Below are positions 47,007-47,729 of a stretch of 64,000 bases of DNA, in pieces. The stretch is from a candidate division WS1 bacterium (GTDB lineage: Bacteria; Armatimonadota; Zipacnadia; Zipacnadales; UBA11051). Numbering within the stretch: position 1 is the stretch's first letter; every line of letters starts with the position of its first letter. Under the pieces are notes generated by a model. The model worked only from the letters and a program-made list of their open reading frames with translations. It did no database searches and was not told the origin of the DNA. A program made the position numbers and the translations under genes. The stretch is taken from the NCBI GenBank assembly GCA_012518355.1, contig JAAYSP010000014.1:5569-69568 (forward strand), written 5' to 3'.

Positions 47007-47729
47007 TCATCGTGTGCCTCCGTACCGCCGACGATTTATTCGCCGACGAACCAGCCAACTGACCTCGGCATCTTTCAGTTCACGACGTCGTTCGGCCTCT
47101 GTCATCCTGGACGCCTTTATGTAGCCGTACCGCGACCAGAGCCAGTCCAGGCCAATGACAGCCACCACCGCCGGTACAAAAATTCCCAGGGCCGGCCACA
47201 CATGTAACAGCATCTCGCCTGGACTGCGCCCGGCTTCCAGGTGCAGGCACTGTACTGTACGCAAAAGTGCCATGACGCTGGCAGCAACTGAGGCGAGAAG
47301 CAATGCTGCCAGAATGCTTCGTACTAGCGGGTCCGGCCGACGGCGCGGCATGCTGTAGTACCCAACTTCCGTGCTCCTGGCCCACGGCAACCGTAACGCG
47401 AAATTCGTCTGGAGCAGATTGCCCAGTAACCATCCGCAAAGTCCGATGACGCCGATCGGGGCCACGGCTATCGCGCCCACTTGAGCGGCATGGCCAATCC
47501 ATGCAATCAGCAGCTCCGGAGAGTGGTCAGTTGCCTGCAGGCTGGTCTGCAGCAAGGTGACCAACGGCTGCCACACTATCATACGGCCTGCGATCAGCAG
47601 CAGCATCAGCCCTGCTAACAGTGCGATGGCACCTGACACTCCCGGGCTGCACGGCTGGGCTCCAGCGCGTCGCAAATGCTGCAGCTTCCGCTCACTGGCC
47701 GGATATCTTTTGGACGACTGATCAGCCAC
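47007..47729 (-). CDS. flhB: FlhB/SctU-like export switch protein, N-terminal membrane domain only (240 aa, lacks the NPTH autocleavage C-terminal domain)
   Basis: Conserved N-terminus (KRYPASERKLQHLRRAG), four TMs, linker (KASRMTEAERRRELKDAEVSWLVRRRINRRRY), then a stop 15 bp before the flhA start. No NPTH motif in any frame nearby. Confidence 0.65.
   Translation of the reverse strand: MADQSSKRYPASERKLQHLRRAGAQPCSPGVSGAIALLAGLMLLLIAGRMIVWQPLVTLLQTSLQATDHSPELLIAWIGHAAQVGAIAVAPIGVIGLCGWLLGNLLQTNFALRLPWARSTEVGYYSMPRRRPDPLVRSILAALLLASVAASVMALLRTVQCLHLEAGRSPGEMLLHVWPALGIFVPAVVAVIGLDWLWSRYGYIKASRMTEAERRRELKDAEVSWLVRRRINRRRYGGTR

Follow-up and report, generated by a model that had tools for sequence, protein, structure and literature searches.

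To our knowledge, the FlhB or SctU protein of every flagellum and injectisome studied so far carries a self-cleaving C-terminal domain (FlhBc). This domain flips the specificity of the export machinery once the hook or the needle is complete, and it is treated as essential for export in Salmonella and Yersinia. Free-standing homologues of FlhBc are also known, such as YlqH of Bacillus subtilis and FlhX of Helicobacter pylori, in organisms that also have a full-length FlhB. FlhBc is the docking site of the early rod and hook subunits and the site of the specificity switch triggered by the ruler (PMC8983047, PMC7064499). [quoted passage not shown] According to Abby and Rocha (2012, PMC3459982), the “Myxo” non-flagellar loci of Myxococcales encode an export apparatus, an ATPase, and a small inner-ring protein, without genes for rod, hook, FliG, MotAB, secretin, or needle; they were argued to be functional from their long-term conservation and are thought not to be capable of protein delivery to the outside of the cell. 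Lysobacter enzymogenes is non-flagellated, and those flagellar T3SS genes that it still has influence its twitching motility and its release of toxin (PMC7277350, PMC7688988). Here, we describe a gene of a candidate division WS1 bacterium that encodes the N-terminal part of FlhB and stops before FlhBc. We call it flhB-N. It lies in a stretch of 64,000 nucleotides (contig JAAYSP010000014.1 of assembly GCA_012518355.1, positions 5,569 to 69,568), hereafter the window; related loci and proteins are given by L and P numbers. The truncation of flhB-N is a natural, selectively maintained, and clade-wide trait, and not an error or a recent pseudogene.

FlhB-N resembles the canonical proteins (Salmonella FlhB, with 383 residues; Vibrio FlhB, PDB 6S3L; YscU, EscU, and SpaS) in its N-terminal motif, its two transmembrane hairpins, its loop of about 30 residues, the “MTxxE...E...E(G)” start of its linker, and the position of the gene between fliR and flhA. 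In contrast with them, it has neither NPTH motif nor FlhBc, and the NPxxGxKR motif of the loop is replaced. YlqH and FlhX are the reciprocal piece to FlhB-N and show that the halves of FlhB can exist as separate polypeptides; unlike in these cases, only the N-terminal half was seen here, and we found no gene encoding only FlhBc in about 310 kb. The nearest concept is the “Myxo” T3SS, which is also a compact and conserved set of export apparatus, ATPase, and small ring protein. The WS1 module differs from it in being of the flagellar type by profile scores, in having FliO, FliH, and FliA, and in belonging to a different phylum; a truncated SctU is not mentioned in the sections of PMC3459982 that were considered. 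Among publications on truncated FlhB or SctU, on T3SS of WS1 or Armatimonadota, and on reduced T3SS of Planctomycetes, we found none that describes an FlhB or SctU naturally lacking FlhBc, which is weak evidence given an incomplete coverage of the literature.

The gene flhB-N is an open reading frame (ORF) encoding 240 residues from a GTG start, with a GGAG-rich stretch directly upstream (47007..47729, minus strand). Its product has the N-terminal motif, two transmembrane hairpins, the gate loop, and a basic linker, and its orthologues have 227-246 residues. It matches the Pfam family of FlhB/HrpN/YscU/SpaS (PF01312, Bac_export_2; 65.4 bits, E = 6.8e-18, gathering cut-off 24.4), with the best stretch at profile positions 2-104 of 335 and a coverage limited to the N-terminal two thirds of the profile. 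Its score in the FlhB equivalog model is far below the cut-off (51.8 bits against 349). Hydropathy reveals four hydrophobic segments (at about residues 26-60, 74-106, 134-162, and 172-199), and lysine or arginine make up 14 of the last 41 residues. Hence, the FlhB N-terminus, the four transmembrane segments, and the basic linker noticed in the original prediction are all present. Aligned as a profile with its close homologues, the protein corresponds to residues 14-249 of Salmonella FlhB and 12-248 of Vibrio FlhB. The NPTH motif of Salmonella FlhB is at residues 269-272, as placed by a C-terminal Salmonella FlhB query that aligned exactly to residues 221-383 of a PDB chain. FlhB-N thus breaks off midway through the linker, about 20 residues short of NPTH, in agreement with the stop that had been predicted; its end is equivalent to residue ~249-252 of Salmonella FlhB, and about 130 residues are missing. 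Neither the motif (as NP[TE]H) nor the globular domain (FlhB_CC) was found in the protein, the latter using a hidden Markov model (HMM) of 161 FlhBc sequences.

The way in which flhB-N ends leaves no place for the missing part. The junction with flhA reads ACA CGA TGA, and the ATG of flhA is at 47013-47011, forming a 4-bp ATGA overlap (47010..47013, minus strand) that is also of 4 bp in L001, L007, L009, and L015. This overlap indicates that the two genes are probably translationally coupled. Since the stop of flhB-N overlaps the start of flhA, there is no room for a C-terminal domain, as the original prediction claimed, and the same arrangement is found in the orthologous loci. Two other readings of the junction were discarded. 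A longer flhA ORF with a TTG start was rejected because the orthologues all start 4 bp before the flhB stop. A programmed frameshift fusing FlhB-N to FlhA was rejected because ATGA is an ordinary coupling arrangement and is common to loci with differing junction sequences.

Which parts of FlhB have been kept? In the structure of FliPQR-FlhB, each hairpin region contacts FliP and FliR, and the long cytoplasmic loop (FlhB_L), whose conserved hydrophobic and NPxxGxKR residues insert between FliQ subunits, wraps around the gate at its cytoplasmic mouth; the N-terminus, this loop, and the beginning of FlhB_CN are gathered at the entrance of the gate, and FlhBc hangs below on a flexible linker (PMC7064499). 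An AlphaFold (AF2) model of FlhB-N, built from an alignment of 58 sequences, has a mean pLDDT (predicted local distance difference test) of 82. It includes a short N-terminal helix, hairpins at residues 29-65/71-107 and 134-165/170-206, and two short linker helices; the loop at 108-133 has low confidence. A fold search with this model gave template modelling scores of 0.35-0.42 to chain K of 6S3L, below significance. The counterpart of FlhB_L, the loop between the second and third transmembrane segments (residues 108-133; 47331..47408, minus strand), was delimited using the predicted secondary structure and the alignments. It has kept its length (~26-30 residues) and the QxxF...LxP start, and its distal NPxxGxKR motif is replaced by GYYSMPRRR. 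The linker keeps its N-terminal part (residues 207-240; 47010..47111, minus strand), in which the basic tail SWLVRRRINRRRYGGTR comes after a conserved MTEAERRRELKDAE motif. Across 58 FlhB homologues, M209, T210, E213, and E217, which make the M-T-x-x-E-x-x-x-E linker motif, are nearly invariant. The C-terminal tail, ...SWL.RRR...R..GG.R, is common to FlhB-N and to its homologues at 55% and 53% identity. These comparisons suggest that FlhB-N keeps all the gate-bound elements and that the hanging domain is its sole loss. Between the window and a strain variant (L018) with 98.7% DNA identity over 3.6 kb, we also counted four changes in flhB-N, every one of them nonsynonymous. These changes fall within nine codons at the boundary between the fourth transmembrane segment and the linker (L018 2998-3022, window 47107-47131, flhB-N nucleotides 599-623) and turn RYGYIKASR into QYCYIRASK.

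The short form of FlhB is widespread among the relatives of this bacterium. The protein is identical to NLJ34737.1, annotated as “hypothetical protein” in a candidate division WS1 metagenome-assembled genome (MAG). Of the 14 members of the NLJ34737.1 cluster at 90% identity, nine are distinct sequences of 240 residues and five are shorter fragments; they derive from assemblies of NCBI, ENA, JGI, and Logan and lie on over 30 contigs, the largest of 2.65 Mb. More distant homologues have 241 residues (55% identity) and 212 residues (53% identity, with the first ~29 residues absent). A MAG labelled uncultured Armatimonadia (CAZJVY01) encodes an orthologue of 245 residues, at 40% identity, that also overlaps flhA, and a second sub-clade is likewise labelled WS1 by NCBI (NLO04520.1, MAG GX131). 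The stop is at the same place in orthologues of 98%, 55%, 40%, and 31% identity. With a profile of FlhB-N, we searched 1.84 billion representative proteins exhaustively using HMMER and obtained 233 hits. The best 11 of them (E <= 1e-12) all have 231-246 residues, and full-length FlhB (341-395 residues) first appears at E ~1e-9. A scan of GTDB genomes gave one locus, which says little on the taxonomic spread, since the peptide patterns used were narrow.

When 153 sequences were scored with an FlhBc HMM, the domain was present in 101 and absent from 52. A neighbour-joining tree of the N-domains brings together in one clade about 23 representatives at 50% identity, none of which has the domain, namely the window protein, P0001-P0013, P0035, P0044, P0046, P0048, P0051, P0055, P0068, P0092, P0117, and P0150. 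Four more such proteins (P0043, P0085, P0137, and P0139) adjoin it. This is a rough distance tree with midpoint rooting, and the clade is a lead and not a tested phylogeny. Further short relatives of P0043 were seen at 76-79% identity. Other short hits, lying amid full-length ones (P0033, P0034, P0064, P0070, and others), break off within a motif; we took them for contig-end fragments and not for further cases. In a separate group of FlhB homologues of normal length (341-350 residues; P0026, P0041, P0066, P0079, P0096, and P0112), the match to PF01312 ends at position ~283 of 335, and the FlhBc HMM does not detect them. Their tails bear no relation to the way in which the domain usually ends, and this group may be another C-terminal variant of FlhB.

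The sequence is under purifying selection. Nei-Gojobori estimates for flhB-N against L001 are 0.38 nonsynonymous (dN) and 1.50 synonymous (dS) substitutions per site; against L007, they are 0.66 and ~3.0, the latter saturated. These values give a dN/dS of about 0.25 or lower. Across the same genome pairs, identities are 54%, 40%, and 31% for FlhB-N; 62%, 51%, and 44% for FliR; 58% and 44% for FliH; and 56%, 36%, and 28% for the FliM-like protein. FlhB-N is thus about as conserved as these other components.

The gene is part of one conserved module of 12-13 genes, transcribed on the minus strand from position 55822 down to 44240. None of its 13 ORFs in the window is disrupted, and several adjacent ones share a few bases. 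The module starts with a short ring-type protein of 305 residues (54905..55822; PF01514, E = 0.0058, below cut-off) at the usual place of fliF-fliG. It is followed by fliH (54291..54908; PF02108, E = 2.7e-21) and by the gene of the FliI ATPase (52911..54284; 569.5 bits to TIGR01026, above cut-off, with Pfam hits). A probable fliJ of 145 residues comes next (52466..52903); the copy in the window has no Pfam match, and its positional orthologues match FliJ (PF02050) in L013, weakly, and in L019. The following gene encodes a FliM/SctQ-like protein of 287 residues (51606..52469), whose sole recognisable domain is a C-terminal FliMN_C (SpoA) at residues 203-271 (PF01052, E = 2.8e-15). Then come fliN (51281..51613; PF01052, E = 2.3e-18), a fliO-like gene (50908..51291), fliP (50151..50927; PF00813, E = 1.2e-61), fliQ (48634..48852; PF01313, E = 1.6e-13), and fliR (47882..48628; PF01311, E = 1.3e-27). 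The match of the fliO-like gene is weak (PF04347, E = 0.0012); its position is conserved, and the orthologues in L009, L015, and L019 match FliO. After flhB-N, a full-length flhA of 670 residues (45001..47013; FHIPEP, E = 3e-107, profile positions 3-656 of 657) precedes the last gene, which overlaps the flhA stop and encodes a sigma factor of the FliA/WhiG family (44240..45004; 250.4 bits to TIGR02479, cut-off 189.6). All these genes are on the minus strand.

Flagellar models outscore those of injectisomes for FlhA (311.7 bits vs 235.9 for SctV), FliP (199.7 vs 137.1 for yscR), and FliR (70.5 vs 51.3). Together with the presence of FliO and FliH, and with a FliA above its cut-off, these scores point to a flagellar ancestry of the module. 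The gene order is kept in L001-L006, L007, L009, L013, L018, and L019, and the flanks vary with the lineage: ClpC/NAGPA, enolase/PPDK/SurA, or SHMT/FolC/SecA-C. Having the same gene order amid unrelated flanks, the module behaves as a self-contained unit. Its GC content is 57.7%, that of the rest of the window 56.5%. It occurs in candidate division WS1 and in the MAG labelled Armatimonadia.

Two of the genes in this region were looked at further. The short ring-type protein has an N-terminal hydrophobic segment, a weak YscJ/FliF-like region, a second transmembrane segment, and a conserved cytoplasmic tail of ~90 residues; its positional equivalents in L015 and L012 match SctJ. We noticed in its tail (residues ~215-305) two repeats, QRPELVGAVYVQL and QRPMHPEIAQIVAASL, that resemble the EHPQ-type helical motif of FliG/MgtE_N. 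A FliG-like domain was nonetheless rejected, with nothing in Pfam at E <= 10 and a probability of 0.15% in the hhalign comparison with Salmonella FliG. The tail is only a lead towards a possible FliF-FliG-like mini-fusion. The second, lying between fliP and fliQ in the opposite orientation (49047..49889, plus strand; 280 residues, lipobox ...IIGGC), encodes a lipoprotein with no assigned function and no Pfam match. It is flanked by a promoter-like site (48961-48989) and a terminator-like hairpin (49967-49995). The gene is at the same position in L001, L007, L009, L013, and L018, with 26-70% identity and an invariant GC in the lipobox, and was not found in L019, from the second WS1 sub-clade. 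The lipoprotein is about as conserved as the T3SS proteins.

If FlhBc has been separated from FlhB-N, it could be encoded elsewhere. We searched for it with two HMMs, one built from six sequences and the other from the 161 FlhBc domains of full-length hits. The latter recovers the positive controls (Salmonella, Vibrio, YscU, EscU, and YlqH-like) at E <= 4e-29. In six-frame translations of the window and of 19 related loci (~310 kb), nothing FlhBc-like was better than E = 0.25-0.7, and NPTH occurs in none of the frames. Within the 64-kb window alone, NP[TE]H is absent from all six frames, which extends the absence of NPTH that had been predicted for the frames close to flhB-N. Neither the window, nor a 10-kb extension on its right side, nor the syntenic loci of the relatives gave a separately encoded FlhBc. 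The same holds for the axial structures. Among the Pfam-scanned ORFs of the window and the called genes of the extension, there are no families of rod, hook, filament, stator, FliF, FliG, secretin, or needle. Specifically, flgB/C/F/G/E/D/K/L, fliE/K/C/D, and motAB are absent from the window ORFs, the extension, and the related loci. The SctC secretin, the SctF needle, and SctD were not found among the window ORFs. FliF and FliG are absent from the window and the syntenic loci, where the 305-residue ring-type protein holds their place. A scan of the window for sigma-28 promoters (TAAA-N13-17-CCGATA) gave a single match, at 31795, inside a gene; 8 of 100 shuffled sequences also had a match, and this is no convincing FliA target.

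The explanation that we regard as the probable one is that FlhB-N is a natural, switch-less FlhB of a reduced, flagellum-derived T3SS, acting as a gate subunit only and without a switch between early and late substrates. FlhB-N would serve only as a structural, gating, and assembly subunit of the export gate. The substrates would be chosen by the cytoplasmic ring of FlhA, together with FliH/I/J and the platform of FliN and the FliM-like protein, with no other contribution. A single class of substrates would be exported, with neither a checkpoint for hook or needle length nor a transition from early to late substrates, because FlhBc is the dock of the early substrates and the site of the switch. 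The lack of a switch would agree with a module that has no genes for rod, hook, ruler, or filament. The original prediction is supported in its checkable parts; that such a protein would lack the switch is inferred from the role of FlhBc in the systems that have been studied (PMC7064499, PMC8983047). Our analysis adds that the truncation is a trait of a whole clade and that it occurs in a compact module without axial genes.

Several points weigh against this explanation. FlhBc is required for export in Salmonella, so that a working machine without it would need a changed mechanism. The export-gate proteins are all below the NCBIfam equivalog cut-offs, meaning that the system is very divergent. 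In a sister species whose FlhB is 55% identical, fliP is frameshifted in six out of six independent assemblies (L001-L006), which hints that the module can decay. The change of frame (within L001 6808-7582 and the same region of L002-L006) is placed slightly differently in each assembly; a true pseudogene, programmed shifting, and an error-prone tract are all conceivable. The fliP of the window is intact. The search for the missing parts covered ~310 kb, and a free-standing FlhBc of the YlqH/FlhX type, or genes for rod, hook, and filament, are possible elsewhere in the ~2.6-Mb genome. The FliA sigma factor implies target or cargo genes elsewhere, and these could be flagellar. Finally, some MAGs of Armatimonadota have complete flagella (PMC10290634), which also makes an origin of the module by reduction plausible.

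The alternative that best withstands the evidence is that of a split gene, where a free-standing FlhBc encoded elsewhere joins FlhB-N in trans, switching is kept, and the cell perhaps even builds a normal flagellum with genes from outside the window. We consider it unlikely, but it has arguments in its favour. Other bacteria have free-standing homologues of FlhBc, and FlhB functions as two polypeptides once it has cleaved itself. The FliA sigma factor suggests targets at other loci, flagellated relatives exist among the Armatimonadota MAGs, and the inspected share of this genome is about 74 kb, when the longest contig has ~2.65 Mb. Against this, we saw no ORF resembling FlhBc in the window and the 19 related loci, a set that covers different flanks in at least six lineages. 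The window includes the ffh, ylqD, rimM, trmD, rplS, lepB, and rnhB neighbourhood (23161-29088, plus strand). We take the free-standing YlqH of B. subtilis to be encoded in the equivalent ffh-ylqD-rimM-trmD-rplS-lepB-rnhB neighbourhood, and there is no YlqH-type gene in that of the window. Furthermore, the break is in the middle of FlhB_CN (at about residue 250) and not at NPTH, so a partner in trans would also have to supply the rest of the linker. Finally, the module has a short ring protein of 305 residues at the usual place of fliF-fliG.

The module could also be a decaying relic, left over from an ancestral flagellar operon in a non-motile lineage, with the loss of FlhBc as one step of the erosion. 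The low scores of the core proteins, the divergence of conserved residues in the gate loop, the frameshifted fliP of the six sister-species assemblies, and the absence of FliF, FliG, rod, and hook genes nearby are all in line with such decay. We nevertheless give it a low probability. The 13 ORFs of the window are intact and their starts and stops are coupled; the same order is found at 31-40% FlhB identity amid unrelated flanks; dN/dS is about 0.25; the length of the ORF remains at 227-246 residues across about 23 divergent clusters; and the C-terminal basic tail is conserved. Relics of this age would normally be deleted or fragmented, and Abby and Rocha argued alike for the Myxococcales loci (PMC3459982).

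A similarly improbable possibility is that the core of FliOPQR, FlhB, and FlhA has been repurposed for another membrane function, such as the regulation of surface structures or a conduit, and not for dedicated export. The flagellar “CORE” was proposed as a platform for nanotubes in Bacillus, a proposal that is contested. The effects of the Lysobacter enzymogenes flagellar T3SS genes on twitching and toxin release (PMC7277350, PMC7688988) would provide a functional precedent for repurposing. Like the WS1 module, Lysobacter retains flagellar export-gate genes; it has no flagellum, expresses these genes, and shows a link between them and the export of non-flagellar proteins. Unlike WS1, Lysobacter keeps other flagellar genes (flgD), its FlhB is complemented by the canonical FlhB of Xanthomonas, and no loss of FlhBc was reported. 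The WS1 module has retained the ATPase complex of FliH/I/J and the platform of FliN and the FliM-like protein, which are parts for the delivery of substrates and argue against a function other than export.

The last alternative, a full-length flhB hidden by an error of sequencing, assembly, or gene calling, is the default worry with a single MAG; we found no point in its support and its probability is close to nil, since the same ORF of 240 residues recurs in assemblies from NCBI, ENA, JGI, and Logan, the orthologues, which form a deep clade, are just as short and stop at the same place, flhA starts 4 bp before that stop, and no frame has coding potential for FlhBc.

The loss of FlhBc may not be limited to modules of the flagellar type. 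SctU proteins without it, with 257-268 residues, are found in two compact injectisome-like clusters of other uncultured bacteria, L015 (GCA_964619265.1; 6985-12828) and L012 (JGI metagenome; 5364-10807). They stop at the same profile position, ~240 of 341, and the one of L015 overlaps sctV by 4 bp. No FlhBc was found within 10 kb in either locus. These clusters are like the WS1 module in having SctJ-type ring proteins, and their SctU proteins adjoin the WS1 clade in the neighbour-joining tree. In contrast, their partners score as Sct (481.6 bits for SctV vs 432.4 for FlhA; SctR and SctJ are preferred as well), they include FHA/YscD-type proteins, and there is no FliA, FliH, or FliI nearby. A kinase, FHA proteins, and a SycD-like chaperone are further encoded in L012. 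With L014, where we saw only sctS, sctT, and a truncated sctU (8898-10705), these compact clusters (SctJ, FliO-like, SctR/S/T, SctV, FHA/YscD) have SctU proteins of 234-268 residues without FlhBc. The absence of FlhBc may thus be a general feature of T3SS-like modules that have neither hook nor needle.

The remainder of the window encodes housekeeping functions and carbohydrate metabolism. It includes a complete operon of the Bat/MoxR type (1752-9955, minus strand), with a MoxR AAA ATPase, a DUF58 protein, an unassigned gene, the von Willebrand factor A proteins BatA and BatB, a TPR protein, BatD, and a TPR/SH3 protein. It also includes a nusA-infB-truB-ribF block, a polysaccharide lyase, and oxidoreductases of the GFO/IDH/MocA family. 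A protein with a prepilin-type N-methylation motif and a DUF1559 domain is encoded at 29144-29872 (plus strand). Such proteins are presumably abundant in Planctomycetes and related phyla, which would fit an unusual lineage. The 10 kb to the right of the window contain a block of PASTA kinase (PknB), penicillin-binding protein, RodA/FtsW, FhaB, and FhaA (L016 13527-19678). We take this arrangement to be typical of Actinobacteria and other Terrabacteria, and it would fit the NCBI placement of WS1 in Bacillati.

What could these proteins mean for the family? It is conceivable, and we propose it only tentatively, that FlhB and SctU proteins without FlhBc mark an unrecognised class of compact type III export machines devoid of rod, hook, needle, ruler, and switching, flagellar-type in WS1 and in the MAG labelled Armatimonadia, and injectisome-like in at least two cases elsewhere. 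If their grouping in one clade is real, such systems could be an early-branching or an independently simplified third form of T3SS, which would show that the membrane part of FlhB is all that the gate needs. For WS1 bacteria from anaerobic digesters, the finding flags a secretion module. More generally, conserved FlhB proteins without the C-terminal domain, in modules with an otherwise complete gate and ATPase, are a natural experiment that separates the building of the gate from switching. They bear on the minimal working type III export gate, on the choice of substrates by FlhA and the ATPase platform alone, and on the intermediate or reduced forms between flagella and other T3SS.

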